This document shows, piece after piece, positions 3,695 through 52,085 of a stretch of 64,000 bases of DNA (position 1 is its first letter; each line of letters begins with the position of its first letter). Location of the stretch: the IMG/VR virus record IMGVR_UViG_3300042288_001089, positions 4,072-68,071 of that record; one strand, written 5' to 3'. Origin of the DNA: a virus. The position numbers were made by a program, and so were the translations under genes. The notes under the pieces are model-generated. The model was not told where the DNA came from. It searched no databases and saw only the letters and a list, made by a program, of their open reading frames with translations.

Positions 3695-5096
3695 TTCCTG
3701 CGTCGATTTTTTGTATTTGTAGATAAACACTATTAGGCACACCACCATCAAAAGTGATGCCGTCAATAGTTTGAATAAGTCCAGAGTTTGCATCTTGTAC
3801 CCAAAAGTTATCGTAGTAAATATACGAAGTACCTGTAATACTGTTGTACCACTGAAGACCTATGTACGGGTTGGCCGGCGGAGTGTCAGAGACAATCGTC
3901 TTACCCGGCAGACCCTGAGCACCGGCAGGTCCGGTGGCACCGGTGTCACCCTTTATGGCCTTCTTCCCAGACAGAACAACAACACGGTACTGCCCATTGG
4001 ATGGTGCTGATGCGAAACTCACCTGAACAGTGTTGGCAGTCAATACCGCCACCTCTGCCAGAACCTGTATTCCAGAAGAAACCTCGTACACCTGAACAAC
4101 CACGCACACATCATTGAGGTTGTGGGTTACAACAAACGATAACAGCGAACCATTCCCTAGCGTTGTGCAGTAAGATATCTCGCCAGTAAAAGGATCAATC
4201 TCATACTGTGTAAAATCATAGGGCGGTATTGCAGCATTTGTGTGAACACAAGGTATAGTCTGGCCTGAATTAAGAACAAATAGTAAATCTTCATATACAT
4301 CTAAAACTCCCTGCTGACCTATCCCACCAACAAGAAGAAGGCGGAGCATGTCTACCAAATGCGTGAACAGGGTCTGAGCTTTCTCAAACTCAGGGAAGTC
4401 CCCATTGCATTCAATGTACAGGTTGCGAAATGTCTCAAGCTGCTGGACAAGATCACCTATCGGCTTCGGGGTACATGCATCTGCAGTCTCGGTTTTCGAC
4501 AAGGATTCCAGAACCGTAAGCCAAGAGTTCGTCTGGCTTGTGTATGTCAGCGTTGAGGTGAGGCTTATCGTATAAAGAGCATCGTAGTAGTTCTCGTTGA
4601 ATTCCAAGTTCAGTGATACCCCCGAACTGGAAAGATTACCGGTAGGAATACTAGAGCCAACCCAAGCCCTTATGGGAGTGGTGTTGTTGTATCCAGATAC
4701 TTGATAGTTTGTTCCATCACTGTATGAAAGTACAGGAGTGAAGATGTCAAAGTTCTTGACAAGGCTTAATGACACAGGACTGTACTGGAACGCAAACGTT
4801 CTGGTAAACTCTGTGGCAAAATATCCAGATGCGGTGACCGTAAACTTTATGACATAGTTCCCGCACTGTGGTCCACCTATACTGTCCGGGCTTAGATTGA
4901 ATTGAAACGTACCACCCGGTGAAGTTATGTCCGGAGTATCCAAACTACTTGACCTGACATATCCATCTGGCTGAGTAATCGTGAAAACGCCGATCATGCC
5001 AGAAGGTGCTCCGACAGTAGTGTCTGTCAGAATCATCTTTGGCGCACCGGTCAAGTCGAACCGGACGTTAAAAGACACATTACCGATCGATGGCAT
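3687..5096 (-). CDS. Virion structural protein with a short collagen-like segment
   Basis: 469 aa; [16 protein letters not shown] repeat; VTHNLN fibre motif. Confidence 0.6.
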
Positions 5097-10773: not shown

Positions 10774-13700
10774 TTATATTTTATAGAGTTTGAAATAATC
10801 CGTTGCTTCTTTTATCTCTCCCATATCACGCTTAGAAACCTTCACTTGGTCGGCTATCAGTGCGTAACCTGCGGCCATGGCTATGTCAAACTTAGTCGTG
10901 TTTGATATGTCAAAGTCCAGCCAGTCCTGAATCAGATCCTTGAAATACACAACCTCTATGTAGTTGTTTATGTAATCCTCGGTCAGTTCAGCTATCTGCT
11001 GGTGCGTCTTTGGACTTGCAGCAATACCCGGCTGGTTTCTTTCCGGTAGCCAAGTCAGGAAGTTCCCATAGTTTCGGTCGTTGAAATAGTTCAACATACC
11101 TATCTTGTTGTTCTCGAACAGCAAACTACAACCATAGTATACCGCCATCTTCAGCATGTCCTCATAGAAGATGACCACGCTGTCTGGCCGGTGAACATAC
11201 TTCGCAACAAATGCGTAGTTGTACTTGTCCCCCGAGGCGGCAGAATACTTCTGTAGAACTATCCCGGCACCGTTCGACCTCCTCCCATCTTCTGTGGTGT
11301 TGTGGTCTATCGGGTCTACTCCGATCACAAACTTGGTATTGTTGTTGGGATAGAAAAGTTCGCCCCTCTTCAATACCTTGTTGCTATCCATCTCATCATC
11401 GAATAGTTTTACCACTTCCCACTTGCCATTCCTTGACGGCTCCCAGATGACACGACTATCCTTTTGTCCACCTTCCCACACAAAGTTACCTCTTGTTGTT
11501 ATATTATCCTTCCAACTGAGCCTATCTAACCTTTCGTTCAGCTTCATGGCGTCATAAAGACACTTGTTGCCGTCTATCCTGAACGCCTCTTCCCAGCTTA
11601 ATGGTTCCTTTCTGATGACCGAGCTGAGAGATCTTGGGTCATTTGCAAGAAGTTTCCTCTCCTCAAGTATCTCGTTCAGTGCCATCTCCCTGTTTGCTAT
11701 ACCATACTTGTCGTAGTACCTTGTCTGGTCTGCCGAACAGAAGTACCTGTACAGGCCACTGGGAGTTCTCTTGCCGGTCTTGTTTGTGTGGTCCGACTTG
11801 TCCCATATGGTCTTAAACGCCTGACCGCCCTGTTCCATATCTTCGACCGTTGTAGTAAGGAGCGACTTGCCTATGATCCTTCCCTCGTCATCTAGGTGGC
11901 AGTATCTGGTAACAAGGTACCTGTCCCAAACATTTATGTCTGCAGTCTTCCCCACCTCATCTCCTAAGTACCTCTGAAGCTTCTGACCGTCATATGATAT
12001 CGCCTCGGATGTCTTCCAGTCTATCATTGACTCAAGCTCTTCGTCATCTTTTATTGACTCCGCCTTTTTACCTTTCACCGTTGTTCGGTAGAACCTAAGC
12101 TCAGATGTTGGTGTCAGACCCTTTGACTGGTCATATACCGGTATGAAGAAATCTGGGAGTTTCTTGAATGGTTGAATGATTGCCTTACGGAATACTTCTT
12201 TTGCATCCGATCCGGTCTTTGATTGTACCCCCGATCTGGAATTATTAGCCCGGGAAGTATATTCATAAAGGAACACACCTCCACGATAGGTATTATGAAC
12301 CACAGTTCCATCCGCCAGTAGGAATAGATGGTTGTCATCAACGGCAAAACCATAGTACTCCCCAATCCCAACATCTTCAATCTTAAAACCAAACCTCATG
12401 GAGTTTACCCTGTGCTTAACATTTAATGCTTTTTTTCTATCTATTCTGCACGGTATCCTGTGTATGTTTCCATAAATGGAAACCCTATAAACATCACACC
12501 TATAAACAGACCCGTCAGCCCTTTTCATGCTCGCCACCTTTTTGATAATGCTGGTGTAAAAGCCTAAACTTCTTGACAGTTCAACAATGCCATCAGCAAG
12601 TTCTTTTCTTTTCTGGGTAATCTCATAGCATGTTTGGAATCCCCTTATTATTGATAGGTGACCATCCGTATCTATCAAGCCTGCCAACAAGTCCAGCCTA
12701 TTCTTTTCGCTGTCTATTAGATACTCGGATGGGATGTGCTTATTGTTTATCACATTGCAATCCCTCAACCCTTGGCGGTATATATTAACACCCTTCTGCT
12801 CTTTTTTTACTATAGCGTATGTGACTTCATCCCGATCAACCACAGAATAATTAATTGATTCCGCATACCTTTCTATCTCATCCCTAACTTCCGGGTCAAC
12901 ACCAGTTATGTTCCCAAAAGTTTTGCATCCATCTCCAAGATAAACGCCCATGATATAAGGAGGGATTGAATGGGAAACCTCTTCAAAATTTTTACCCCAT
13001 CCAGTCCTATACATGACAAGGTGATCCTTCTCCCACTGCTTAAGAAGAAGATAGTCTTTTACAGAAATATTAACAGTTGAGTCTTTCTCCCATCCATAGA
13101 TAGAATGTTTAGCAGCCCCATTCCATATGAGGGTTAGTATATGAGATTCGTTACAAGAAAATGGATCGCCCTTTCTTGGGATAATTTTATACATCCTTTC
13201 AGACCCAGATGTAGAACCATAAACCAGTCTAGGTGTGGAATCATCACCCATAACAAACTCCCCGTCTACAATATCTTGAACCATCTTTATAGATCCATCG
13301 TACATCCTGATCGGGGTATCTTTTGCAAAGCATTTCCCTTGCCTCCTTTTGGTTATCTCAACCATTCCAAAACACTCGGGATCATCTATACAATACTGAA
13401 GGAAATAGAAATATCTCCTGTCCGTGTCCCTGTATTTTGGCAGGCCAGTATCAAGGTGCCAGTAATTTAGGTAGAAGTAATGAAGACCGGTTATGTATGT
13501 GTCAACGCCATTGTTCTTAAACCAGAAACCATTCAGCCGGCGGTCCCATTCCTGCTGCCTGAACTGCTCAAGCACCGGGTCAAAATATTCATTATCCTCA
13601 GACTGCTTCTTTATTTCCTTCTCTCTTAGTTTTTTGTAATCCTTTGGAAGCTTTGTATATTCCCAGTACTGCTCAGATTTTTGGGGCAGGCGTACATAGA

Positions 13701-13815
13701 CACCACGCTTCTCAATGCTGCCAGTGATGATGTTATAAACATACCCGGCCGGCGGGATGTTACATATCAAACCCTGCACATCTTCTGTGGTTCCCTTATC
13801 TATTGGATTGAACAT
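10774..13815 (-). CDS. terL: Terminase large subunit, interrupted by an intein
   Basis: ITGLHYFYLNY, KRRQGK|T Walker A, DEVGK Walker B, VIGVDP nuclease motif. Confidence 0.92.
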   Translation of the reverse strand: MFNPIDKGTTEDVQGLICNIPPAGYVYNIITGSIEKRGVYVRLPQKSEQYWEYTKLPKDYKKLREKEIKKQSEDNEYFDPVLEQFRQQEWDRRLNGFWFKNNGVDTYITGLHYFYLNYWHLDTGLPKYRDTDRRYFYFLQYCIDDPECFGMVEITKRRQGKCFAKDTPIRMYDGSIKMVQDIVDGEFVMGDDSTPRLVYGSTSGSERMYKIIPRKGDPFSCNESHILTLIWNGAAKHSIYGWEKDSTVNISVKDYLLLKQWEKDHLVMYRTGWGKNFEEVSHSIPPYIMGVYLGDGCKTFGNITGVDPEVRDEIERYAESINYSVVDRDEVTYAIVKKEQKGVNIYRQGLRDCNVINNKHIPSEYLIDSEKNRLDLLAGLIDTDGHLSIIRGFQTCYEITQKRKELADGIVELSRSLGFYTSIIKKVASMKRADGSVYRCDVYRVSIYGNIHRIPCRIDRKKALNVKHRVNSMRFGFKIEDVGIGEYYGFAVDDNHLFLLADGTVVHNTYRGGVFLYEYTSRANNSRSGVQSKTGSDAKEVFRKAIIQPFKKLPDFFIPVYDQSKGLTPTSELRFYRTTVKGKKAESIKDDEELESMIDWKTSEAISYDGQKLQRYLGDEVGKTADINVWDRYLVTRYCHLDDEGRIIGKSLLTTTVEDMEQGGQAFKTIWDKSDHTNKTGKRTPSGLYRYFCSADQTRYYDKYGIANREMALNEILEERKLLANDPRSLSSVIRKEPLSWEEAFRIDGNKCLYDAMKLNERLDRLSWKDNITTRGNFVWEGGQKDSRVIWEPSRNGKWEVVKLFDDEMDSNKVLKRGELFYPNNNTKFVIGVDPIDHNTTEDGRRSNGAGIVLQKYSAASGDKYNYAFVAKYVHRPDSVVIFYEDMLKMAVYYGCSLLFENNKIGMLNYFNDRNYGNFLTWLPERNQPGIAASPKTHQQIAELTEDYINNYIEVVYFKDLIQDWLDFDISNTTKFDIAMAAGYALIADQVKVSKRDMGEIKEATDYFKLYKI
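12292..13332 (-). mobile_element. Intein with LAGLIDADG homing endonuclease (347 aa)
   Basis: Begins CFAKDTPIRMYDG, ends GTVVHN followed by Thr; motifs GVYLGDG and LLAGLIDTDG. Confidence 0.93.
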
Positions 13816-22377: not shown

Positions 22378-22767
22378 TTGTGTACGTTTGACGCAAAGCA
22401 ATTACCCCCCCTCCCTCCTCCTCCTTCATCCCCACCTGCCGTGAAACTTAACAAGTACATCTTCCTGCTACCTGCTGCCGTCGATGTGGTATGCAAGCGG
22501 ATGGGGATCTCTCCCCTGTCTCCCTCGGACCTGTTCGTCCTGTACAGCGTTCAATATCTTCCTGCCCCTCCCAGTCAACTGGCGATCCTCCGACATGCCT
22601 CTGAGATGTTTCATCCCATTGCTCCAAGGACCGTGAACGAATGTTGCAGGAGGCTTGTCTCTTCCTCCCTGCTGTGTATCATAGAAGGGCGATATCATCT
22701 CTCTCCTGACGGGCGCATCTTTATCTCTTCTATTCGTCGTTACCTACTGAATAAGCGGCTGTCATAG
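22378..22767 (+). CDS. Putative winged-helix (MarR-like) DNA-binding protein; start uncertain
   Basis: LSPSDLFVL...PRTVNECCRRLV...L..EGRYHLSPDGR pattern. Confidence 0.55.
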   Translation: MCTFDAKQLPPLPPPPSSPPAVKLNKYIFLLPAAVDVVCKRMGISPLSPSDLFVLYSVQYLPAPPSQLAILRHASEMFHPIAPRTVNECCRRLVSSSLLCIIEGRYHLSPDGRIFISSIRRYLLNKRLS

Positions 22768-22826
22768 TTTCCCCCCGAACTGCTCCCCATAGCCTCCACA
22801 CACTATAACCCCCATTTATAGCCATT

Positions 22827-22866
22827 TGCTAACATATTTAGTACGCCAATGCTAAGAATCTTAGTA
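22827..22866. promoter_or_regulatory. Pair of 17-bp quasi-palindromic sites (putative operators)
   Basis: TGCTAACATATTTAGTA (22827) and TGCTAAGAATCTTAGTA (22850). Confidence 0.5.
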
Positions 22867-22991
22867 GCATTCAACCCATCAACAGGTCACATCTTCCATG
22901 CCCTGTGAATTATTTTAAACTTTTTTTGTCCCATGAAACCCTTGTCAGTACTGCATTTCATTAAAATCTGCAACGCTGTTGCAAAAATAAA

Positions 22992-23024
22992 TTTGGATGC
23001 TGTGGAAAAGTCGTCGTATGTTTG
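22992..23024 (+). promoter_or_regulatory. Bacteroidota primary-sigma promoter (early operon)
   Basis: TTTG - 21 nt - TATGTTTG, the full -33/-7 consensus. Confidence 0.8.
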
Positions 23025-23069
23025 TGTGGCAATCGGGTGATACCAACCAAGTCCCTCACCTTGCAATCA

Positions 23070-23081
23070 GTTCTTTCACAT
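23070..23081 (+). promoter_or_regulatory. boxA-like antitermination element
   Basis: GTTCTTTCACAT directly after the first leader hairpin; resembles rrn boxA. Confidence 0.5.
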
Positions 23082-23375
23082 CGTCCCCTGCCCTGTAAGG
23101 CAGCCCGACAAACGGAGCAAAAGCACTCAGCCCGCCCAAAGGCAGGTATGAATAGCGGCATTCCAACCAAGACCCTGCCGCTATCCCCAACACGGCTCTG
23201 ACATAGTCAACCCCACAAGGATGCGAACACGATGTAATATCGTCCCCAACGCATGACCAATTCCTTAGCACTGAGACAGCAAGTAGCGGCCACCATGCAC
23301 CAAGCCACCCGATGAGGTCGATTTATCACCCATCGGTCGGGGGTTCCCCCCCTGAACAGGCCTGCATGGTGGTGA

Positions 23376-23440
23376 CATGGTGTAATGCTACCACGCCGAA
23401 AGGGTGGCGGTCACAAGTCCGCATAAAAGCAGAGTGAATG
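23376..23440 (+). ncRNA. Twister ribozyme (P1 type with P3 stem)
   Basis: U^AA; P2 TGCT/AGCA; P3 CACGCC-GAAA-GGGTG; P4 GCGG/CCGC with loop TCACAAGT; ATAAA linker; GA-GT; both pseudoknots AC:GT; P1 is weak. Confidence 0.82.
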
Positions 23441-23460
23441 AAGTATAAAAACCTATCACC

Positions 23461-23664
23461 ATGACAAACAATTTTGAAGGTACATTCGCATTTGAAACAT
23501 GGCACAATGGCGGACTACAAATGTCTGCCTTTTACGAAGGTATTCATGCCATCAATTTCATCTACATGCATGAGCAAAGCCGCACATTCGCTGACCTGCA
23601 TGTGTACCATAACAAAATCGAGGCTTTAACTGCTTATGAGCAGTTGCAGAGCGAGGTTAACTGA
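23461..23664 (+). CDS. Early hypothetical protein
   Basis: 67 aa between twister and hammerhead. Confidence 0.6.
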   Translation: MTNNFEGTFAFETWHNGGLQMSAFYEGIHAINFIYMHEQSRTFADLHVYHNKIEALTAYEQLQSEVN

Positions 23665-23704
23665 CGAGGACTGATTGCCCGAAACCCCTTCGGGGGTCTT
23701 AACC
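23655..23704 (+). ncRNA. Hammerhead ribozyme, type I
   Basis: Stem I GGTTAA/TTAACC; core CTGACGA; stem II with one mismatch; GAAA; stem III CCCC-TTCG-GGGG; GTC cleavage triplet ending at 23698. Confidence 0.9.
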
Positions 23705-23717
23705 AAATTTTATCGCC

Positions 23718-26360: not shown

Positions 26361-26367
26361 TACCCCC

Positions 26368-26411
26368 GAACTGCTATGGTACTCGATCGGGTTCGATTCC
26401 CGATGCAGTTC
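26368..26411 (+). ncRNA. Mini-tRNA element 4
   Basis: GAACTGC-TATGGTACTCG-ATCGGG-TTCGATT-CCCGAT-GCAGTTC. Confidence 0.78.
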
Positions 26412-26430
26412 CTCATCAAAACAACAAACC

Positions 26431-40546: not shown

Positions 40547-40834
40547 ATGGAACAGACTAAGCAACAGACTGCAGTAGAATGGTTTTTTGATACATTGGTT
40601 GAAAAGGGGTATATTAAAAAATTGCCCATAGCCGAATATCATGAAGCCAAAGCAATGGAGAATAAACACAGAGACGCATTCCGGGAATTCATAGAATGGA
40701 TAGACCCGGAGTTCGCCGGCATCAAAGCCAAGGCGGAAGAGATACTAAGCAGGGTGGACTCTACTTATACAGCCCACCCTTCTTCACCTTCCCAGTCTTT
40801 ATCCCAATCTTCGTCTGCTTGTCAAAGCCAGTAA
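40547..40834 (+). CDS. Small protein, QQTAV family
   Basis: MEQTKQQTAVEWF...AKAME; overlaps the 3' end of the giant gene. Confidence 0.55.
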   Translation: MEQTKQQTAVEWFFDTLVEKGYIKKLPIAEYHEAKAMENKHRDAFREFIEWIDPEFAGIKAKAEEILSRVDSTYTAHPSSPSQSLSQSSSACQSQ

Positions 40835-43800
40835 CCCGTATTGCACTCCTTTCGTTTATCTGCTCGTCAAGTATTTTGGGATCTGCTCCGGTAAGTATGA
40901 AGTCCTGATACAGCTTGTTGTACCTGCTGATTATGGCCTCCTTCTTTGACTCGGCTTCTTCCTGAGCGGCCTTTATTTCTTCCGGAGTGTACTTCTTATT
41001 GTACTTGATGGCATTGTACTCTCTTGATATTCCATCCATGTCGCTGTACATCCGGCTGAGTGCAAACCCCCAAGCCTCATGCAGGTCAACCTCGTATGGT
41101 CTTGCTCCTATTATAGCCCAAGCTTCAGCGGACTTGTTCTCGTTCTTTATGAGCCTTTCAATCATTGAATAGGTCGATGGCTTAAGTCTGGACCAAGTGT
41201 ATGCTATCGATTTGTCAAACGCATCTGCTGGGCCGTCAGTCTCTAGAACTATATTGTTACCAGTCTTAAGGTTTCTATTCTGCATGAGAGACCACATAGC
41301 ATCAAAGGTCATCTCTGGGCCCAAGAACGGGCTGAATAGTTCCGCAAGTGCTGCAGGTACACCCGGGTCCATGGTCCTTCCGAAGATCCCCTCTCTGCCC
41401 TCAGTGAGTGCGTTCATTGAACTTGGGATAAGACCGTATGGATCTAGGCTTGACAGGTTCAGCACCGTGTACTTGTGTGGGGCGGTCTTTGATGGGATGA
41501 TCAGCAGGTCGCCAGTTCTCATGAATGGTGGCAGTGCCTCTCTAATCGCATTCTTTCTCCTCTCCTCGTCATCATCTCCCATGATGGCACCAAGTATTCC
41601 AGCAGCGGCAAATCCAAATAGTTTTGCAACTCCGATCGTAACTGCACTTCTAAATCCTAAGTATGCGGCTATGCCTGCCATCCTTCTCATACCCACTGCC
41701 CTCATCTCCGGGTCTTTTATGTCTTCATTGGCGATCTTTATTGTGTTCGCCAGTACCCTGAGAGATTCAGCTTGGAACGATATGAAATCACCAAAGATGG
41801 GCGCATTCTTACTCACGAACTTTGCTCCCTCCCATACACGGTCGTATGTTGGCCATGTGTTCTTCACCCTTTCTGATGATTCAAGATCCACTTTTGCCTG
41901 CTGTTCTTCTGTCAAGGAAGAGTATGTACCCCCGAACCGAGCCTTACTCACCAGCTCCCTCTCGTTTATATATCCATATACCTTCCAGAAATCATCACCA
42001 ATCCTGTATGCCTTATTAAAGGCAGGGAATGGATTAATCCTCTTTGTAACTCTTTTCTTCCACATTCCCTCAGAGCTGAGTGCCATGTCAAGTGCTATGT
42101 CATGAACATCCCCACTTGAGAGCATGGAAGCTATCTCCCTTGCACCGACAGACTGTCCCACCAGATTAAGTCTTATAACTTTCTCTGTTATCTCATCTAT
42201 ATCGGACTTGGAGTACTGACCTTTTACATACGCCCAAGAGTCTTTTGCCGCACCAAAACTATTCCCAGTATACACAATACCATTCATAACGGCGAATCCA
42301 AGGTTGGACTCAATGTTCTTCAGCTGTGTTGCCAGTGACAGAACCGTCTTGCCATACCTTACAGCACCAACCATTCTCATCCAAGCATTGGTTAGGTTGT
42401 TGTATGTTGGTTCTACCGCCTGAAGTGATTCGTATATTTCAGGGGTGGTATAGAGTCCCCCGAGCGGGCTCATTGACTCAGTACCGGTAGACGCTATTTG
42501 AACGCTATGGCTTGCGGGTCTCTCAGGATCATTCTTTTCAAAGAACAGGGTACCCATTCCCTTATCCCTTAGGTTGCTGAGGAACTGGCTGGAAGACTTG
42601 AGAGCAGCCTGCTTTGTGACGGTCATCATAAACACAATGCCCGGGTCTGTGTACTCCCCCATCAGTTTCCTGATAGGCTCAGGAATATCCTTGCGCTCTT
42701 TTAAGATGCCGGGGTTTCTCTTGTCAACAGATCCCGCATTGAAGTATGGGTTCCTGTTTTTATTCAGGATGTCCTCCACATCTCTTTGGGCTTTTACTAT
42801 GGCGTCCCTTTCTATCTGCTCAAGAGTAAGCATCCCGGCCTTGTCTGTCGCCATCTGCTTGATGTACTGGTCAGCCAGATACTTGATGGCCTCATTCATC
42901 ACCTCCTTGGAGGGCTTGTAGAAGGAGTCATTAAACATCCTGTAAGACCTATTGACATAGGCTCCTATGTTATTCTGCAGTACGATGGACTGCTCGGGGG
43001 TGACATATCCAGAACCTACCAGATCTTTTGTAAGATTATCTATCTGACCTCTCATCTTGTACACAAACGGTACAATCTCTGCAGGCAGTGCAGCTATGGA
43101 TGGGGGTATGATTGACGGCGATTCTTCTGGGAAATTGGGCTGTGAGGCCAATACAACCTCATTGGGCATGATCTGTGAAACTCCCCTAGCATCCTTCAGT
43201 GCCTTAGAGAAGGTGTCCCAATCAGAAAAATTAATCGATTTAGCTACGATCTTAAGCTGCTCTACCGTCCTTGCCGCCCTAGCTATCTCTATATTCTTTG
43301 CTCCACCGGCAAAGTCCTTCATCGCCAGCACCCAGTCAGGCAGCCCTTTGGCAGGGTCAAACCATTTCTTCTTGAAGTTTTCCGCCCAACTTGCCCTGTC
43401 GGATATCTTATTCTTTTCCAGATACTCCTGTATCCTGTCCATTGGAACCTCAAGGCCGGTAAAGGCCGCATCGATAGGCTTTCCAAACTGGCGGTTCCTG
43501 TATATGTTCTGGAGCTTCGCCCTCTCTACGAGGTTGTTCCTTTGCAGTACGGTCATGGCAGGGAACTGATTCCTTAGCCATCCTTCAGGGTCATCTATCA
43601 GATCCTTTATATCCTGCGGAGACATCTCCGGCATGACAGATGCTATGCCTGTGATCAACTCAAGCTTGTCAGCACCTTCGGATATCTTCCTCATCACATA
43701 CGCAGCCAGCTTGAACTGCTTTGTCTGCTCTGGTCTAGGGCCGGCCGATGCCTGTATCCTGTTATCAGTAGTACTGAATGCGCCAGTATTTTCTGTGGCT

Positions 43801-46800
43801 GATTTGATTTGGTTGGGGTTAAAAGCCACATATACAGACAATCCTTTTGATACTTTTTCTATAACGCCATCTGACCCAATTATAGATGCAACATCAGACA
43901 TCATCTTGCCATAGCTTGTATCTTGCTTATACGATCTTTTGATATTCTGAAGTACTTCTTTATCAGAACCATCAACGCCAAACATATCGTCCACATATTT
44001 CTTAATCAAATCCGACTTAGATAGACCTTCTGATTTTGTGTAAAAGGGAAGATAACTATCGTAAAACCAGTTATTATCACCATTTGAAAACAACTGATAT
44101 GCCTGCTCTTTTGTAATATTATTCGACCTGACAGTTATTACAAGCGGGTTCAACAAGTTAGTAAATACGTTCATTGGATTCCCGTATTCAGAAGCAGCCT
44201 TCTTGTTATCTGTCATGTAAAATCCGGGGCCCTGCTGTGCAAGCCTTGCCTCCCAAGATATCCTGTTGTATTCAAACTGGTCAAATTTTGATTTCGTTCC
44301 ATGATACACCACCATCGGCTCTCCATTCTCATCCACCACCTTACTAGCATTTTCGGGATCATTCTCCCAGTCCCCAAACCAGTTCTTGAATTCAGGTGTT
44401 CTTACTTGCGCCCATTGCCTTTCATTCAGATTGGTAGGCTTGCCATTTGGCGCCTTCATGTAGGTCCCGTTCGCCTTGGCGTCAGATATTATCTTGTCGA
44501 GGTTTCTTCCTCCGGCGGAAGCTTGAATAGATACATCATTCGGAGTCTTTTCGGTAGAGAATTCAGAGGTAGTCGATCCAACTTTTTTTACAAAGTTGTC
44601 AACCACTTCTTTTGAATTTGAAGCAGCAAATCCTTTGAAATTACCGCTATCCCAATACTGAACTACATGCTTAAAATTATCAAGAAGTACATTTTTGTAA
44701 TAATCAATATTAGCCTGATTCTCTTTCATACCAACAAGGACATCATCGGACTTCATAGCCTGCTGCTCCTTAGTGTAGTATATATCTTTGTATGCAGATT
44801 TCTTTTTTTCGTTCTTGTTGTATACTTCTGCGTCTTGGCTAAACTTCTCCTCCGTAACAAAGAGGCCGTTATTCTTTAGGTAATTATCAGCTATCTCTTT
44901 TACAAAATGATCACGCCTATCTGTAATAAACTGAAACACCATTGACTCATGAACAATGTCAGACTTTGATTTTGGTTTGTGTTTTTTATATGTTTTGCCT
45001 TCGTAATCAAAACCTTCATAGAACGCCTCTTCTACAAACTTACTTCCCTCGACAGGCTTTGCCTCATGCACCTCCCTCATGTCTGGGTTTGGATCAAGAT
45101 TTATAGTCTTGATAGATCCGCCGCTAGATTCCGTTATTGCTTTTACAAACCCACCCTCTGAACCGCCAATATCATAAACCAAAGGTTTAGTGGATTCTAT
45201 AAACCTGTTTGGTACGTCATATATTTTTCTTGGCGCATATGACTTATTGGTTGAGTAATAGGCATTATAAACAACCGTCTCCAAGAACAAAGCTTTCTGA
45301 GCCTTCTCTGAATACATTGGAGAGTGAGTATTGTATGCATCAAATTCTCCCTGTGTTGAGAAGGTATTTGATACCATGGCATGGCCAAAAATATCATGCA
45401 CCGCCCTGAACAGATCATTAAACAATACATCATCTCCGTTTATTACTATCCCAGTACTTCTGAATGGAGCGTAATTTTCTGCAGATTCATTTTCGTTTGC
45501 TTCACCAGTTGAAGATCTGCTTCTAAGATAATACAAATGCTTGTTCTCCAAAACATCCTTTCTCATTTCGGATGAGTTTACCCCATAAGGTTCTCCATCC
45601 TTCAGCCATGGTTCAATCTTATATCCAGCATCCACCAATTCCTGATACTGCTTAAGAGTTTCATTCAAGAATGCTTCATAAGACTTTGCCATTTCTGGAT
45701 TCTTCCTATCGTCTTTTGCATTTTTATGATAGTCAGATATTTCCCTAAATAGATTAGCATCAACTTTTGTATACGCCGGGTTAGTCTTTATTTGGTTTGC
45801 CTCTTTGTATTTGTTTTTAATATTTTCCAAGTCAGAATTAACTGCTCTTGGCGGATCTGAAAACATTGACACCAAAGCATTACCAACCTTAACCTGAGTC
45901 TCCCTGAACGTTGGGATAGATGTAGCAATATGAAGATCAAAATTGCCCATGTATTTATCAAACACATTCTTAAAAGATTGCTGGTTGCTATCAAATCCTA
46001 TTACGGGTTTCCATTCTTTTATTGGCTTGTACTTGTCAGAGATCCCTTTTACAACATCACTAAAAAATCCTATAGTCTTGCCGGATTCATTTACATTAAT
46101 ACCTCTTCCTCCTGCTGAGGCCTGCCTGTTCGACTTCAGCCCTTCGAACTTGGGCATCACATTAACAACGTTACCGACTCCCTTGCCGTAAACTTCTACC
46201 GGAAGTTTCTCGGTAGTCTGTGCACGGAGAACCTTCCTTCCACCGATGTACCACTCAGCAACAGTTACAGGGTATCCCTTCTTGGCAGCCACCTGAGTGA
46301 TGAATCCTACCTGCTTGTTGGCATCAAAGGCCACACGGTCACCGTACACCTTCCTGAATTCAACCTCTGCTTCGTCATACAGATTCAGTGGGTCTCTGTT
46401 GAATGGGTACACCTTCTCCATCGGAACCTTTATGGCGTATCCAAACTCTGAAGGTATGCCGGACTCTATTGTTCCGGGTTCAGTATACATCATTGACAAG
46501 CCAACTCCGGGATTCTCCCCCCGACCCGTCACTAGATTGGAGCCAAACCTGTCAGGATCCAGCTTGGAGAATTTACTTCCGCTATAATGGAAGAATACAT
46601 AGTTCCCTTGCCCATCCTCAGTCATCATCTTGTCAAGCTTGGCGGCTTGGACAAGGTTGCGGCCTCCTGCAGAGGCTTGTATAGCACCAGCAGTCGAAGA
46701 TACAGGAGTATATTCAAATGATCCTTCGGCTCCTACCGGCTGACCCTTTACATACATACTTCCTGCAAGCATTTGTGCTGCAGTCTTTGTGTAAGCACCG

Positions 46801-49800
46801 CCCTTAGGCCCAGTCATTTCGACAGGCTTAAACATTTTGTTTATCTCATATGCGCCATCAAGAATGAATGCATTTTTACCGGGGAACTTGGCGTTGAATA
46901 GTGGGTGCTTAACGCCACCTTCTTGGAATTTAGATGCGTACTCTTTTGCCGCATCATCCAGAGATTGCCACTTCTTTTTATTATCTGGGTCTTTTGCCAG
47001 TTCGTTAGATGCGTCAACGATATTCTGTGGCAACCCCTCAACTGATTCAAATCCAGTGACGGCCATTCCCCACATCCCTTCGTTCATATATAGGTCAACC
47101 AACGATGGCTCACCTATTTCACGCATAACTTTCTCTGCATTGATACCAAGCCTATCCATCAATTGCTTGGCGATAAACTTATTCGGCTTCTTAGAAACAT
47201 AACCAATATCTCCTTCAACTCCCTTTACAGAAGCTTTAGGAGTGATACCACCAAGTAGGTTAGATACGAAAGCCCCACGAGCCTTAAAGCTTGCAGGCTT
47301 ATTATCATCCCCTACCTTGTAAGCCATCTCAGAGATCATCTCATCGATGACTTCTGGATTAGACAGGTCTGCCTTTTTATACTTGTTTACAAATTCATTG
47401 TATGCCTTTTCTCCAAATGCATCTTTAAGCAGGACAAGATCCTTACCAAAGAACTCTGACTTAAAATCAGATGACCTTAAAATACTCTTAGGAAGCATTG
47501 AGATACCATCCATTACATACCTGAGTGCATAAGAGTTGCTGAGAATAGATGTAGGTGCTTGGGTTGCTACCATAGTAACACCCTGTTCTGTGCCGAACAC
47601 CTCTGCATTATACTTAACCCATCCTGCTACCTTAGCCAACTGAGTAGTGGCGAATCCTATGTTACTGTCGACATTGTCCTTGATAGACAAGTAAGCAGGT
47701 CCGCCATACATAAATATTTTCTTACCAGACGGAAGGGTTAGTTCACCAACCCTAGTCGGATCAGAATTAATAACAACAGCTTTCCCACCGTAACTATTAT
47801 AAATATCTTCAAGACTTCTTCTTGGGAGATCTTCTACCTCCCTAGACTTATAAACATCAATGCCACGAGATACACTAGCCTGAACAACAATTTCACCACC
47901 GCCAACAACTTCTGGAGATGTAAGATTGTTTACATAATCTTTAACGTTTCCCCTACCTACAATCTCAGCAACATCAGCACCCTTGGTCATCGCCTTGGAT
48001 ATCTCTGTGGCCAGACGCTTAAAGGCGGCGAGATCACTTGTATCTTTAAGCAAAGGTCCTATACCAAACAGCTTGGCTATCTTGTTGATCATCTCAAACA
48101 GGGACTGCTTGAACGATGTGGGTATGTTGCTCAGGTCTACCACCCCGGCAGATATCCTAGCTATTGTATCCACACCAGCCTCATCGTCTTTCTCCTCCTG
48201 AGTCTCATACTGCGGCTGGCCGTCTGCCCATTCCTTGGCTTTAGCAACCCCTTCATTCATTCCTGCAGCCTCTTTCATACCACGCATGAACATATCATAT
48301 AACTTCCTATCGGTGTTCCTTATGATGTTCATTACAGGGTGAACGGCTTCATGCCATACAACCACACCAGCCTCAAGAGCATCTCCCAGCCTTGACTTGT
48401 TTATTACCACTACGCCATTACCGGAATCAAATATGCCTTGCTCAGATTTCATGCCCTGATCAGCAGCCTCCTGATCGTTCTCTACTACAATAAATCGGAT
48501 ACCAAGACTACGAAGTGCCTTTGATGCAACCTCTACAGTACTGGCAACTCTTTGAGCTATCGACCTCTTGGTGACGTCTGTCATTCCAAGTTCCTGACGG
48601 AGCTCTTCTTCTATGACTGATGGAGTAGGGGTGGCTGGTTGAGCTGCCTTCTCTGACTCAACCTGTGAAGGGAGTTTTGCCCTACCCTCGCTGACAGCTT
48701 GATCAATTATTTTCTGAGTATAGGCCTGAGCTTCTTCGTAGGTATTAAACGGAACCTCATTGGCCGGCGCAATATCCTCCCTAACCATGAAGACAACATC
48801 CGGCCTATTCTTTAATGGGGAATCAGGTGCATCCCAACCTATTGGTGCTTGCTTCTCATTGAATGGAACTCTGGCAACAACCTTATACCCGGACTTCTTA
48901 TAGATATCCGTAAGGTATATGTCATAGTTGTCCATGAACAGACCACCCATATCCTTCATCTTGGATATCATGGCCTGTGCAGCACCTTTGGTTTTCACAG
49001 TAGCGTCCTTGACAAGGGATACTATCTCTCCGTTTGGCTTTAAGAGCGATAGGATCTTATTGCCGGCAGCTCTTAAAAACTTACCACCTTGACTGGCGAT
49101 GCTATCATACTTCTCCTGAGTATAAGGAGTGACGGACACGCCTGCAGATCCAAGGCTTGCCATAGCAGACTCCATCTGGGATGCAAAGTTTGTTGCGTCA
49201 GATGTTACCTCTATCTGTTCGGAAGGAAGGGTAGCATCTGTAGAAGCAGCCTGACCTTTGCTTTCATTTTCTAACGCCGCCAGTTCTGCATCATATTTGG
49301 CATTAATGCTTTCTTCCGTATTCTCTATCAGATTCCCATTCGAATCTCTAATTTCTACATTTCTATCAAAGTTGAATGGGCTGTTGAAATTGTCTAACTC
49401 TTCCTTTCTTCTTCTTTCTATGTCAGATTTTCTGGCATCTATTTCCTCTTGGCTGAGGATATTGCGATTGCCAACATTTGTTTCCGTGGCCGTGGCTTGC
49501 CCTTGTATCCCCTCTCCTTGCCCGACTTCTGGTTGTCCAGTTTCAATTCGTGCAGGTTGTACGACACCGCCTTCTGAAAGGCTTTCTTGCTGTTGTTGCT
49601 TGCTGACTTGAGTGGCATATAGTGGGTTTTTATATGAACCATCTGGCAAACCTTCAGAGAATCCTACCCTTTCTTTTGTTTGCTGTAGTTCGTTATTTAA
49701 TGTTTCATCGTTTACTGCTCTTACAAAGTCTGCCGACTTTATTACCTCATCAGCCTTACCAGACTGCTTGAGTTCTTGATATTCAGATACAGACATTACC

Positions 49801-52085
49801 CTCTTGGATCCCTGTCCCCCCGGCAATTCAATTACAATGAACGGCTCCTTATTTTGTATCAGGTTGGATATGCTGTTATTTACTTCTAGCAACTGCTGTT
49901 TGGCTATCTCTTTATTTGCCGGATCCTGTTCGTTTTCTACCTGAGTCTGCAAGTCCTTAGCCCGGCTAGAAAGCACTGACATCATCAACTCCCTGTCTCC
50001 AGATATCCCAGACTCCTCATGCTTTATCTTATTCTGATTAAGCCTGTTAAGTTCTGCGCTATAGTTGTTGTACTCTTTCTGGCTTATCTTACCCGTGTCA
50101 TAGTATTTCCTTACGACCTGCTGTGCAAAGTCTATGCCCTTGTTGTTGAGCATGTCGGTCAGATACTGTATATCTGGCTTTTTTGTGTTTGCGCTTATTG
50201 AACCTATTGCCTTCCCAAGGGCAGACATTCCTGTTGATTGACCTATGGTCGTGACCATTACGTCAACAGCTATTTCTGGGTTCTCTTTTACATACTGCCC
50301 AAACGTACCAGTATACCCACTTTCTTTCGCCTCATTATAGTTCTGTACATATTCTACCGGTATTTCTTCTGCCTGCTCAAGGGCAAATCCTCCTGCAACC
50401 TTAGAAAGCTTATTAGCCTGAAGCAGTTTCATTGTTGACAATCCGCCAAGAAAATAAAACGGAAGTGTTATTTCGTTATTCTCCTTGTACTTTCTTGCCA
50501 CCTTAAATGCTTCCGTAGGGTCACCGGTCTCTTCAAGCTTTTTATTATATATGTCACCAGTGAGCTGCATGCTTTCCATCTGGTAACCAGCTGCACCAGC
50601 TGCTGCTGCTCCAACAGCAGAAGGCAGACCAAGTCCACCGCTGGCTACTGCTAACACAGTAGCGGGTACCATTGTTGGGAGGGATGCTCCTATCGATTGA
50701 CCTGCTCCTGTTATAGCTCTCTTAGTCCATTCAGTCCCGTTCCACTTATACTGTGCCGGCGCAAGTTCTTCCGCTCCCGTCTCTTGATTTCTCAACCACC
50801 TGCTGAAACTATTGTCATAGCCATGCATATTGAGATACCCCCCGAACTGGGAAAGACCGCTCAACAATCCAGATGTAAGAGATTTACCAAGAAGCATTGA
50901 CGCACCAAGTGCTTCATCAACACTCTTCCTTTGTTCGTTCTTTCTTTCATTCAGCCTAAGAGAAGCGTTCTGGTATGCCTTCTGTATTTTTTCCTTTTCG
51001 CTTTGGGGAAGAGAATCGAAAATCCTTTTGTCTGTTATGGAAGCTTCTATCTGTTTTAATTCAGATTCAATCCTAGAATACCTTCTGTTAATCCTAAGGT
51101 TTACATCCCTTACCGCCTTCTGGTATTCCTTGTCTATCTGATTTATAGATGCGTCAAGCTTATTCTTCTCCTGATTGTAAAGTGTGACAGCGGAGTTGTT
51201 GTCTATCAATCCAGACTCTATCTGCTTATTAAGATCCTCGGTGAATTTATTAAAAGACTCAATCTGTTTTGAGCTCAACAGCTTTGCGTTATTAAGAGCT
51301 TTGTCCGCCTCCTTGGATTGCTCATTCTTCAGATCCTCAAGGTTTGATATATTCTGCCTTGAAAGACTATCAAACAGTTGCTGGCCATACTTCTTTGGAT
51401 CAACACCGGTCTTCTGCATCTCTTCTGACAGGTACTTATCAAACTCTGGACGATCCTTTATTTCCTGAGCTCTTTTTTTCATCTCAGCGATCATAGCTGT
51501 TTTAACATATGACCCTGCTCCTGTGCCGGCAGTTACGTTATCTACAAACTCTGTAGCCTTTGCCCTGTCAAAAGTATCTCCCTTGAAGAAGTTTTTGTAG
51601 CCATCATTTTTGAGGGCATCATCTATTGGCTTATATACAAGTTCTGCGTTATCCTTTAACTGCCTGTCCTTTATTTTCTGTGCGCCAGTATATACGTTCT
51701 GTATTTTAGACAGTTCATCCCTTGTTACCTCTGGGCCCATACCCCTAGAAGAGGCTGCGCTTTTTGCAATATTGGATGCATTGTAAAGATCCTGCTCTGC
51801 TTTTTTGGCATTAACAAGTGATGTCTCTAGTGCGCCGTAATCAACCTGCTTGGGAAGCGGTCCTGCCTTTTCCTTACCTATCGATGGGGTTCTTGATTGA
51901 AATCCAAAATATGATTCCGGCTTTACTTCTGATATTCTTCCACCATCTTTTTTTTTACCAAACATCTTCACGAAATCATCTGAGTATTTTGTTACATCCT
52001 CCTCAGATGCACCACCATCCAACATAAGCTTGATGTTATCATCAAGCTCTTTCATCCTTTTGCTATCCAAAATTGATACCGGCAT
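40761..52085 (-). CDS. Giant polyvalent virion/ejected protein (GNAT, zincin, CmoA-like methyltransferase, ART domains)
   Basis: 3774 aa; WHEAVH; YDIGGSEGG...FQF...EEKF; VYHGT...GFYMT...AFNPNQIKSA; located after the tail and internal virion genes. Confidence 0.85.
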   Translation of the reverse strand: MPVSILDSKRMKELDDNIKLMLDGGASEEDVTKYSDDFVKMFGKKKDGGRISEVKPESYFGFQSRTPSIGKEKAGPLPKQVDYGALETSLVNAKKAEQDLYNASNIAKSAASSRGMGPEVTRDELSKIQNVYTGAQKIKDRQLKDNAELVYKPIDDALKNDGYKNFFKGDTFDRAKATEFVDNVTAGTGAGSYVKTAMIAEMKKRAQEIKDRPEFDKYLSEEMQKTGVDPKKYGQQLFDSLSRQNISNLEDLKNEQSKEADKALNNAKLLSSKQIESFNKFTEDLNKQIESGLIDNNSAVTLYNQEKNKLDASINQIDKEYQKAVRDVNLRINRRYSRIESELKQIEASITDKRIFDSLPQSEKEKIQKAYQNASLRLNERKNEQRKSVDEALGASMLLGKSLTSGLLSGLSQFGGYLNMHGYDNSFSRWLRNQETGAEELAPAQYKWNGTEWTKRAITGAGQSIGASLPTMVPATVLAVASGGLGLPSAVGAAAAGAAGYQMESMQLTGDIYNKKLEETGDPTEAFKVARKYKENNEITLPFYFLGGLSTMKLLQANKLSKVAGGFALEQAEEIPVEYVQNYNEAKESGYTGTFGQYVKENPEIAVDVMVTTIGQSTGMSALGKAIGSISANTKKPDIQYLTDMLNNKGIDFAQQVVRKYYDTGKISQKEYNNYSAELNRLNQNKIKHEESGISGDRELMMSVLSSRAKDLQTQVENEQDPANKEIAKQQLLEVNNSISNLIQNKEPFIVIELPGGQGSKRVMSVSEYQELKQSGKADEVIKSADFVRAVNDETLNNELQQTKERVGFSEGLPDGSYKNPLYATQVSKQQQQESLSEGGVVQPARIETGQPEVGQGEGIQGQATATETNVGNRNILSQEEIDARKSDIERRRKEELDNFNSPFNFDRNVEIRDSNGNLIENTEESINAKYDAELAALENESKGQAASTDATLPSEQIEVTSDATNFASQMESAMASLGSAGVSVTPYTQEKYDSIASQGGKFLRAAGNKILSLLKPNGEIVSLVKDATVKTKGAAQAMISKMKDMGGLFMDNYDIYLTDIYKKSGYKVVARVPFNEKQAPIGWDAPDSPLKNRPDVVFMVREDIAPANEVPFNTYEEAQAYTQKIIDQAVSEGRAKLPSQVESEKAAQPATPTPSVIEEELRQELGMTDVTKRSIAQRVASTVEVASKALRSLGIRFIVVENDQEAADQGMKSEQGIFDSGNGVVVINKSRLGDALEAGVVVWHEAVHPVMNIIRNTDRKLYDMFMRGMKEAAGMNEGVAKAKEWADGQPQYETQEEKDDEAGVDTIARISAGVVDLSNIPTSFKQSLFEMINKIAKLFGIGPLLKDTSDLAAFKRLATEISKAMTKGADVAEIVGRGNVKDYVNNLTSPEVVGGGEIVVQASVSRGIDVYKSREVEDLPRRSLEDIYNSYGGKAVVINSDPTRVGELTLPSGKKIFMYGGPAYLSIKDNVDSNIGFATTQLAKVAGWVKYNAEVFGTEQGVTMVATQAPTSILSNSYALRYVMDGISMLPKSILRSSDFKSEFFGKDLVLLKDAFGEKAYNEFVNKYKKADLSNPEVIDEMISEMAYKVGDDNKPASFKARGAFVSNLLGGITPKASVKGVEGDIGYVSKKPNKFIAKQLMDRLGINAEKVMREIGEPSLVDLYMNEGMWGMAVTGFESVEGLPQNIVDASNELAKDPDNKKKWQSLDDAAKEYASKFQEGGVKHPLFNAKFPGKNAFILDGAYEINKMFKPVEMTGPKGGAYTKTAAQMLAGSMYVKGQPVGAEGSFEYTPVSSTAGAIQASAGGRNLVQAAKLDKMMTEDGQGNYVFFHYSGSKFSKLDPDRFGSNLVTGRGENPGVGLSMMYTEPGTIESGIPSEFGYAIKVPMEKVYPFNRDPLNLYDEAEVEFRKVYGDRVAFDANKQVGFITQVAAKKGYPVTVAEWYIGGRKVLRAQTTEKLPVEVYGKGVGNVVNVMPKFEGLKSNRQASAGGRGINVNESGKTIGFFSDVVKGISDKYKPIKEWKPVIGFDSNQQSFKNVFDKYMGNFDLHIATSIPTFRETQVKVGNALVSMFSDPPRAVNSDLENIKNKYKEANQIKTNPAYTKVDANLFREISDYHKNAKDDRKNPEMAKSYEAFLNETLKQYQELVDAGYKIEPWLKDGEPYGVNSSEMRKDVLENKHLYYLRSRSSTGEANENESAENYAPFRSTGIVINGDDVLFNDLFRAVHDIFGHAMVSNTFSTQGEFDAYNTHSPMYSEKAQKALFLETVVYNAYYSTNKSYAPRKIYDVPNRFIESTKPLVYDIGGSEGGFVKAITESSGGSIKTINLDPNPDMREVHEAKPVEGSKFVEEAFYEGFDYEGKTYKKHKPKSKSDIVHESMVFQFITDRRDHFVKEIADNYLKNNGLFVTEEKFSQDAEVYNKNEKKKSAYKDIYYTKEQQAMKSDDVLVGMKENQANIDYYKNVLLDNFKHVVQYWDSGNFKGFAASNSKEVVDNFVKKVGSTTSEFSTEKTPNDVSIQASAGGRNLDKIISDAKANGTYMKAPNGKPTNLNERQWAQVRTPEFKNWFGDWENDPENASKVVDENGEPMVVYHGTKSKFDQFEYNRISWEARLAQQGPGFYMTDNKKAASEYGNPMNVFTNLLNPLVITVRSNNITKEQAYQLFSNGDNNWFYDSYLPFYTKSEGLSKSDLIKKYVDDMFGVDGSDKEVLQNIKRSYKQDTSYGKMMSDVASIIGSDGVIEKVSKGLSVYVAFNPNQIKSATENTGAFSTTDNRIQASAGPRPEQTKQFKLAAYVMRKISEGADKLELITGIASVMPEMSPQDIKDLIDDPEGWLRNQFPAMTVLQRNNLVERAKLQNIYRNRQFGKPIDAAFTGLEVPMDRIQEYLEKNKISDRASWAENFKKKWFDPAKGLPDWVLAMKDFAGGAKNIEIARAARTVEQLKIVAKSINFSDWDTFSKALKDARGVSQIMPNEVVLASQPNFPEESPSIIPPSIAALPAEIVPFVYKMRGQIDNLTKDLVGSGYVTPEQSIVLQNNIGAYVNRSYRMFNDSFYKPSKEVMNEAIKYLADQYIKQMATDKAGMLTLEQIERDAIVKAQRDVEDILNKNRNPYFNAGSVDKRNPGILKERKDIPEPIRKLMGEYTDPGIVFMMTVTKQAALKSSSQFLSNLRDKGMGTLFFEKNDPERPASHSVQIASTGTESMSPLGGLYTTPEIYESLQAVEPTYNNLTNAWMRMVGAVRYGKTVLSLATQLKNIESNLGFAVMNGIVYTGNSFGAAKDSWAYVKGQYSKSDIDEITEKVIRLNLVGQSVGAREIASMLSSGDVHDIALDMALSSEGMWKKRVTKRINPFPAFNKAYRIGDDFWKVYGYINERELVSKARFGGTYSSLTEEQQAKVDLESSERVKNTWPTYDRVWEGAKFVSKNAPIFGDFISFQAESLRVLANTIKIANEDIKDPEMRAVGMRRMAGIAAYLGFRSAVTIGVAKLFGFAAAGILGAIMGDDDEERRKNAIREALPPFMRTGDLLIIPSKTAPHKYTVLNLSSLDPYGLIPSSMNALTEGREGIFGRTMDPGVPAALAELFSPFLGPEMTFDAMWSLMQNRNLKTGNNIVLETDGPADAFDKSIAYTWSRLKPSTYSMIERLIKNENKSAEAWAIIGARPYEVDLHEAWGFALSRMYSDMDGISREYNAIKYNKKYTPEEIKAAQEEAESKKEAIISRYNKLYQDFILTGADPKILDEQINERSAIRVTGFDKQTKIGIKTGKVKKGGLYK

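Follow-up and report, generated by a model that had tools for sequence, protein, structure and literature searches.

This locus raises the question of what a long, folded and untranslated leader does at the head of a phage operon, and why it should be cut from the genes behind it. The first-pass annotation had proposed, from 23029 onwards, an antitermination leader and/or a protein-sponge RNA released by a twister ribozyme. The window considered here is the whole 64,000-nucleotide stretch of DNA that was analysed, bases 4072-68071 of a 68,071-base IMG/VR record with direct terminal repeats and a completeness rated at 100%. Sequence comparison leads us to hold, with moderate confidence, that the region is an antitermination leader with a copy of boxA, severed from its operon by a twister and belonging to a family of multi-helix leaders.

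The operon and its leader family

The leader sits inside a 690-base gap (22768-23460) without convincing ORFs. The gene upstream of the gap (22441-22767) encodes 108 aa and has, by eye, the look of a winged-helix regulator. Downstream lies a row of small + strand genes, the first of them a 67-aa ORF at 23461 (23461-23664, + strand). Neither product has a family match, and a protein search with the 103-aa product of a neighbouring gene yielded no relatives. By its sequence, 23029-23383 is the untranslated leader of this rightward small-gene operon. A blastn comparison of the leader region with 50,697 phage records gave no match.

Near-identical DNA was found by a sequencing-run search in lake-water and other freshwater metagenome runs; among the runs listed, none was an RNA run with the phage. 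The contigs from four DNA runs were short and of low depth and hardly differed from the window; they therefore carry no covariation. One DNA-run contig, at depth 4, has a substitution at 23300 and a deletion at 23314. The phage genes include a ThyX-like thymidylate synthase, an integrase and a primase-helicase. On the - strand a 1013-aa protein (10774-13815) carries Hint and LAGLIDADG homing-endonuclease domains, an intein within a phage gene. A 3774-aa polyvalent protein with an ART-PolyVal ADP-ribosyltransferase domain (40761-52085, - strand) and a crAss-type muzzle protein (54659-58246, - strand) place the phage near the crAss-like podoviruses. Primase homologues in genomes, used in an attempt at host assignment, came from mixed phyla at 27-41% identity. 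On sequence grounds a Bacteroidota-type host is likely.

Eight further distinct homologous leaders were found in related uncultured phages, which brings the family to at least nine: the window, L199 (also G002), L197, L198, L200, L201, L202, L221 and L223, with lengths of 286-443 nt. L196 differs from L197 at 6 of 6321 bases and was not counted apart. Relatives identified by their primase-helicase (56-63% identity) mostly do not have the leader region, and among them nhmmer matched G002 only (window 23190-23706, E 2.4e-5 and 4e-7). The relatives beyond G002 were reached by a search with the upstream 108-aa protein and then by a three-block DNA pattern of the leader. This pattern matched 7 viral contigs, all of them family members and two of them new. 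The upstream proteins are only 33-51% identical between family phages. The leaders share colinear exact blocks of 9-16 nt, the window and L200 having a 16-nt exact match. In G002 and L197, and seemingly in L201 and L202 by eye, an extra gene of ~89 aa lies between the regulator-like gene and the leader.

The region had been described as non-coding, with conservation as the point on which its interpretation would turn, and both descriptions hold: homologous leaders with colinear exact blocks occur in eight related phages, and no ORF is conserved among them. The longest stop-free stretches in the L199, L201 and L202 leaders encode 29-40 aa, and peptide similarities between leaders are short (8-29 aa). 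Between L197 and L221 such similarity appears in two frames, as expected of conservation at the DNA level.

Several candidate relatives were discarded. The pattern CACGATGTAA(N)ATCGT gave 102 viral-contig matches, of which only G002 was leader-homologous by nhmmer and blastn; another of these matches, L175, is similar in the hammerhead stretch only. Two near-identical high-GC stretches from a metagenome scan had no blastn match to the window or G002 and were taken as chance. L226, a contig with the label of a Rhodocyclaceae MAG, was the sole genome-contig match to the family pattern and was likewise judged by eye to be due to chance. Against the Rfam 15 covariance models the leader body (23000-23390) had no match at E<=10, and the 8 related loci gave nothing at E<=1 besides ribozymes and one tRNA. 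Judged by these comparisons, this is a conserved structured RNA family that is absent from Rfam.

A promoter is predicted by pattern match at 22992-23024 (+ strand). It has the form TTTG-N21-TATGTTTG, which corresponds to the Bacteroidota-type -33/-7 layout, and its -7 box ends 44 nt ahead of the boxA-like word described below. The strict pattern TTTG-N21-TAnnTTTG precedes the leaders of L200, L221 and L223 and looser forms precede those of L201 and L202; no promoter-like site was found upstream of L199, L197 and L198. Within the window the strict pattern is unenriched (3 matches vs 1.5 expected, with 21 of 100 shuffles reaching 3). The operon is probably read by host RNA polymerase from the promoter ending at 23024, with a predicted transcript start near 23029. 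Just 5' of the predicted -33 box lies an 8-bp hairpin (22967-22985) that scores as terminator-like on the - strand; no - strand gene is nearby. A palindrome with an operator-like look, CGAAAACGTTTTCG, is conserved ~100-150 nt upstream of the leaders in L199, L197, L201 and L221, and by eye it is absent from the window.

Hairpins, loops and the leader body

The leader as a whole folds better than every one of 100 shuffled sequences (z -3.9, or -3.2 when the twister is included). All parts of the fold lie on the + strand. Hairpin 1 is 5'-terminal (23029-23064), and its inner stem of GGTGA (23036-23040) and TCACC (23056-23060) encloses a 15-nt loop, TACCAACCAAGTCCC (23041-23055), which holds CCAACCAAG. 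Hairpin 2 (23152-23184) consists of a perfect 9-bp stem, ATAGCGGCA (23152-23160) with TGCCGCTAT (23176-23184), and the loop TTCCAACCAAGACCC (23161-23175). The two had been reported to combine unrelated stems with a common loop, and a check of the sequence bears this out at these positions, the loops being identical at 13/15 positions. The repeat search scored the pair as a 26-nt direct repeat of 77% identity with a spacing of 120 nt. The exact 13-mer loop pattern has two sites only in the 64 kb, hairpins 1 and 2; with 2 mismatches it has 6 against 5.4 expected, which is the chance level.

The CCAACCAAG loop is confined to this phage (1/9 leaders). Words of the type CCAAC/CCAAG number 7 in the window leader vs 0-2 per relative, the stretch of hairpin 2 is unalignable between relatives in an alignment of seven leaders, and a search of viral contigs with the two-loop pattern gave 0 matches. 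The loops had been put forward as the binding sites of a multi-loop sponge. Because CCAACCAAG is absent from all 8 homologues, this proposal fails for the family on loop conservation, and the loops are, by this comparison, a decoration of one phage lineage and not a family feature. The idea that the loops mimic the CAAG loop of the twister was dropped, as the likeness is partial and G002 has no counterpart. Within the window, the 5' strand of hairpin 1 (23032-23042) is complementary, over 8 nt and twice, to both sides of the GATTTATC hairpin (23306-23331), which may represent an alternative long-range pairing. A word comparable to the hairpin 1 pairing partner is present in 4/9 leaders only.

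Between the two hairpins and the 3' domain the leader body is a succession of small elements. A hairpin of CTGCC/GGCAG (23088-23103) folds in a part that is variable between relatives. The conserved block ACGGAGCAAAAGCAC (23112-23126) matches GGAGTGAAA-type blocks in L199, L197, L201 and L202 by eye. Another block (23193-23217) comprises CGGCTCTG, a hairpin TGAC/GTCA and then CAACCCCACA; it includes an exact 9-mer common to the window and G002, and its hairpin reads TGCC/GGCA in relatives, a change on both sides (by eye). The hairpin at 23221-23254, in which ATGCG/CGCAT enclose ACGAT-GTAAT-ATCGT, appears in the MFE folds and has an 11-nt exact match with G002. By eye the same site holds ATGGG/CCCAT in L197 and GACC/GGTC in L201.

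A third domain opening with CCAAGCC had been noted as well, and it was located in the sequence where it had been placed. It spans 23289-23373 and is closed by a helix of 23289-23299 with 23363-23373, within which 23290-23299 and 23363-23372 form a perfect 10-bp inverted repeat. CCAAGCC (23300-23306) lies directly inside this helix, followed by a hairpin (23309-23336) with the conserved loop GATTTATC at 23320-23327 and by a G5/C6 hairpin (23339-23351). As GATYTATC, the loop is present in 8/9 leaders, and in 7/9 a stem of 5-7 bp closes it, no two of these seven stems having the same sequence. The closing helix was found in 7/7 leaders examined (6-11 bp) with a different sequence each time, and between L201 and L202 it shows a C:G to U:A exchange. 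This set leaves out L198 and L200, which do not have the anchors (the AGTARC stretch and the stretch after the last hairpin). Where a stem of at least 5 bp surrounds the loop, shuffles equalled it in 5-13% of trials in six leaders and in 35% in the seventh, L223; they equalled the closing helix in 0.1-43% of trials, with 19-43% for 4/7 leaders. Thus most of the predicted helices are insignificant singly, and the case is made by their recurrence at homologous places. MAFFT with RNAalifold on the 3' domain returned one small helix only, with the window out of register. Taken across the aligned leaders, the third domain is a family feature, with stems that vary in sequence yet stay paired. Pseudoknot pairing of the GATTTATC loop with a GTGATA word was rejected, a partner of >=6 nt being present in only 4/9 leaders.

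The boxA-like word and the predicted cutting modules

The boxA-like site that had been placed 3' of hairpin 1 is present at 23069-23081 (+ strand). It reads AGTTCTTTCACAT, is the sole exact match to AGTTCTTTSAMA in the window, and follows the end of hairpin 1 after 4 nt. A word of this kind stands near the 5' end in 9/9 leaders, as AGTTCTTT in seven, AGTTCTTC in L198 and TGCTCTTT in L223. L197 and L223 have a second copy further in, that of L223 being GGTTCTTT. The word is the only invariant 7-column block of the seven-leader alignment and the best conserved part of the family. By eye, a hairpin stands just ahead of it in 8/9 leaders, with sequences that are all different; none was seen before the word in L199. 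We also considered the word as the 3' half of a split acceptor stem (GAACTGC ... GCAGTTC) and discarded this, since conservation is limited to AGTTC and the promoter would lie between the two halves.

Copies in leader and spacer are the hallmark of boxA in rRNA operons. Flavobacteriaceae were chosen for comparison because the best primase match in genomes (41% identity) was a MAG of this family, which is weak sequence evidence for the host. Sixteen genomes were searched, and 9 had a 16S gene. An A(A/C)GTTCATTGACATATTG-type word lies 114-178 nt upstream of 16S in 7/9 of these loci; of the two others, one contig reaches just 52 nt upstream of 16S and the other offers a divergent word only. Within the 16S-23S spacer the word is present in 9/9 loci, one spacer having AGTTCTTTGACAT. 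The four genomes with enough upstream sequence show a TATATTTG promoter box, a hairpin (by eye) and then the word. By hand count the phage word is identical to the commonest rRNA word at 11/15 positions and to the L213 spacer variant at 12/15; differences from the commonest rRNA word fall at 3-4 of 15-16 positions. The order of hairpin and then boxA had been likened to that of rRNA operons, and the likeness stands up in the nine leaders and the Flavobacteriaceae operons. It is in this hairpin-boxA order, and in a word kept in 9/9 leaders, that the proposed antitermination role finds its backing from sequence comparison.

All nine leaders end in a module that would cut RNA or mark it for cutting, 10-25 nt before the first start codon: a twister in 2, a hammerhead-like element in 5 and a tRNA-like minihelix in 2. 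In the window a Twister-P1-like ribozyme (Rfam RF03160) lies at 23379-23440 (+ strand) with a predicted cut at 23383/23384. With 47.9 bits (E 2.6e-9 when 1.1 kb was searched) it falls short of the gathering score of 67.2, and accordingly a gathering-threshold Rfam scan of the whole window does not list it. The alignment covers the full length of the model (1-68) with the conserved UAA, CAAG, UAAA and GAG letters. The loop triplet and its partner co-vary by eye, CAC/GUG in the window, CUC/GAG in G002 and CCC/GGG in the model consensus. The G002 twister scores 47.5 bits. When the model was run on L002-L016, which are 15 of the 17 primase relatives in the set L002-L018, G002 was the only clear match, the next having E values of 0.26 and 0.70; a pattern search for the twister subfamily also returned G002 only. 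Type III hammerheads were matched in L197 (44.4 bits, cut-off 48.5) and L223 (26.4 bits, E 0.075), so that every twister and hammerhead of the family scores below the Rfam gathering scores. L221, L200 and L198 have hammerhead cores by eye only and no Rfam match at E<=1; the L198 core is CCGATGA vs CTGATGA (by eye), one conserved position off. The minihelices of L201 and L202 have a 7-bp acceptor-like stem and a T-arm-like hairpin with a TTCGATT loop (z -3.2 and -3.5).

Ribozymes of the twister and type III hammerhead kinds cut at their own 5' edge. A cut there would free the leader with almost none of the ribozyme attached, here as ~355 nt ending at 23383. Twister release of an RNA of that size, part of the original proposal, thus gains from the sub-threshold Rfam match and from the family comparison. 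The same kinds of module also occur between ordinary genes, and the junction module may accordingly open a series of marks that punctuate the operon as a whole and not be peculiar to the leader. At 23655-23704 (+ strand) a type I hammerhead-like element (core by eye, RAGATH-1-hammerhead match of 17.3 bits, E 0.66) holds the stop codon of the 67-aa gene inside its CUGA core. Counterparts follow the first gene in G002, L197 and L223 with stems II and III changed (by eye), and the one in L223 matches Hammerhead_1 with 23.5 bits at 4961-5010.

Further observations concern the spread of such elements. The 67-aa gene is bracketed by two ribozyme-like elements, the twister and the hammerhead-like one, and the gene in the same position in G002 is not homologous to it. 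The stretch 23655-23704 occurs in two copies in L175, an otherwise unrelated viral contig. Contigs in two sequencing runs, unlike the window on both sides, match it with 7 differences where listed. Intergenic tRNA-like minihelices lie at 26364-26412 in the window, at ~4240-4300 in L201 and at ~3985-4040 and ~4345-4400 in L202. Their plan is CCCC, GAACTGC, a T-arm-like hairpin with GGTTCGATTCC and then GCAGTTC, and from this plan they look like RNase P-type processing signals. The decamer CCCCGA(A/G)CTG has 8 copies in the window (4620, 22773, 25678, 26364, 50840, 55772, 59840 as a variant, and 62431) against ~0.1 expected by our own estimate, always on the + strand, even inside regions of - strand genes. 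One copy stands just after the stop codon of the 108-aa gene, and a decamer follows the upstream gene in L197, L199, L200, L201, L202 and L223 too (by eye; a variant in L200 and L223). T-loop-like GGTTCGAATCC words at 35168-35178 and 35646-35656 flank a tRNA-Leu(AAG) found by ARAGORN (35197-35283); they may be further tRNA-like elements or degraded tRNAs.

Mechanism, alternatives and known systems

In the mechanism we favour, the 5' hairpin and the single-stranded boxA-like word would copy the promoter-hairpin-boxA layout of host rRNA operons. The word would load NusB/NusE (S10) and other Nus factors on the polymerase, and the leader and the punctuated operon behind it would then resist Rho-dependent and intrinsic termination. 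To judge by the sub-threshold Rfam match and the family comparison, the twister would cut at 23383/23384. The cut would free a leader RNA of ~355 nt that ends in a 2',3'-cyclic phosphate and leave an mRNA with a 5'-OH and a folded ribozyme at its start, ~20 nt ahead of the ATG. The conserved folded body of the leader may serve a separate function.

Lambda-type antitermination needs an RNA tether between boxA and the polymerase. A cut between the two removes this tether, which counts against antitermination here, and we know of no demonstration of Nus-dependent antitermination in Bacteroidota. The freed leader could instead act mainly in trans as a stable RNA, a decoy or sponge in which the CCAACCAAG loops bind a protein or boxA titrates NusB/NusE and starves host rRNA transcription. 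We consider this unlikely, if well worth weighing: the leader is predicted to be cut free in all 9 phages by three kinds of module, its folded body is conserved, the 5' hairpin and the cyclic phosphate end should stabilise it, and the two window loops agree at 13/15 positions on unrelated stems. However, the loop motif is in 1/9 leaders, no complementary or protein partner was found, and cutting modules also stand between ordinary genes, so a cut at the leader need not imply action in trans. The family may even represent a new class of large structured RNA (~290-440 nt), transcribed under a copied rRNA-operon antitermination signal, excised by a twister, a hammerhead or an RNase P-type minihelix, and acting in trans; this seems to us quite unlikely. 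If it were true, the freed boxA-bearing RNA could titrate NusB/S10 from the host rRNA operons and serve as a host-shutoff device.

Control of first-gene translation was weighed on account of two 10-nt arms, 90% complementary, that bracket the twister (23373-23466, + strand). The leader tail at 23373-23382 could pair with 23457-23466, over the start codon (ATG, 23461-23463), and twister cleavage would free or lock this pairing. Yet the pairing is weak by eye in G002, which also bears a twister, no such arrangement was seen in the relatives with hammerhead or tRNA-like modules, and 270 nt of conserved folded RNA and the boxA-like word would be left unexplained, which makes this account very unlikely. 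We find it hardly credible that the repeats and palindromes act in DNA, as a replication origin or operator sites, or that the region encodes small proteins. A 690-nt gene-free gap with repeats, and the palindrome CGAAAACGTTTTCG upstream of the leader in four relatives, would suit such an account, but the stems change and stay complementary around fixed loops, as fits RNA and not protein-binding DNA. Moreover, the elements are specific to one strand and have ribozymes at their end, the leaders share no conserved ORF, and the palindrome is by eye absent from the window itself.

It has long been a puzzle what purpose twister and hammerhead ribozymes serve in bacteria and phages. Three unrelated cutting devices at one junction of homologous leaders suggest that the cut itself, the separation of leader and mRNA, is selected, and the homologous leaders offer a concrete system in which this can be tested. 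A literature search that covered the text of papers found no conserved structured leader family with an rRNA-operon-type boxA and no link of a twister to an antitermination leader. The same search found no exchange of twister, hammerhead and tRNA-like element at one junction; the supplements of ribozyme surveys may list such loci.

The CsrB/RsmZ sponges resemble this one phage in that a motif recurs in two of its loops, and partly in a third, although the stems are unrelated. Unlike those RNAs, it has two full copies only, the motif is in 0/8 homologues, and there is no known cognate protein. The early transcript of the haloviruses HF1 and HF2 has a hammerhead 13 nt ahead of its first ORF, with a mapped 5' end <=3 nt from the cleavage site; hammerheads also flank genes in prophages, and more ribozymes lie between genes (Perreault et al. 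2011, PMC3088659, in the parts drawn on here). The leaders share with this arrangement a predicted self-cleaving ribozyme 13-25 nt ahead of the first early ORF. A conserved structured leader, a boxA and an exchange of twister, hammerhead and tRNA-like modules are not described in those parts of the paper (PMC3088659).

Bacterial rRNA leaders (boxB-boxA-boxC), on which a NusB/NusE/NusA/NusG antitermination complex acts, have the same order of promoter, hairpin and boxA in a structured untranslated RNA that is later cut out. The parallel extends to the two copies of the word, which Flavobacteriaceae have in leader and spacer and which L197 and L223 also have. Unlike rRNA operons, the phage operon continues into protein genes. 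The lambda nut sites likewise have a boxA beside a hairpin early in early transcripts. In nut sites boxA is ahead of the hairpin, and in rRNA operon leaders the hairpin comes first. The phage leaders, unlike lambda nut, have the hairpin first, and its sequence varies from phage to phage; no N-like protein was identified.

The closest known counterpart is the early leader of T7, a long untranslated RNA with which the early operon begins and which is read from the host promoters A1-A3. The T7 leader is cut before gene 0.3, at what we take to be the RNase III site R0.3. For the leader in the window, sequence and comparison predict three traits of this kind: a promoter of host type, a boxA within a long leader that is not translated, and an endonucleolytic cut between leader and first gene. 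In the T7 record an exact boxA, GCTCTTTAACAA, is found at 813-824, between A3 (750) and gene 0.3 (925). Unlike in T7, the cut would be made by the RNA itself, through a twister, or in relatives through a predicted hammerhead or tRNA-like signal, the leader body belongs to a conserved family of multi-helix RNAs, and its boxA is of the Flavobacteriaceae rRNA type. Phages that probably infect Bacteroidota-type hosts appear to copy the rRNA leader of their host, as T7 and lambda do in E. coli.
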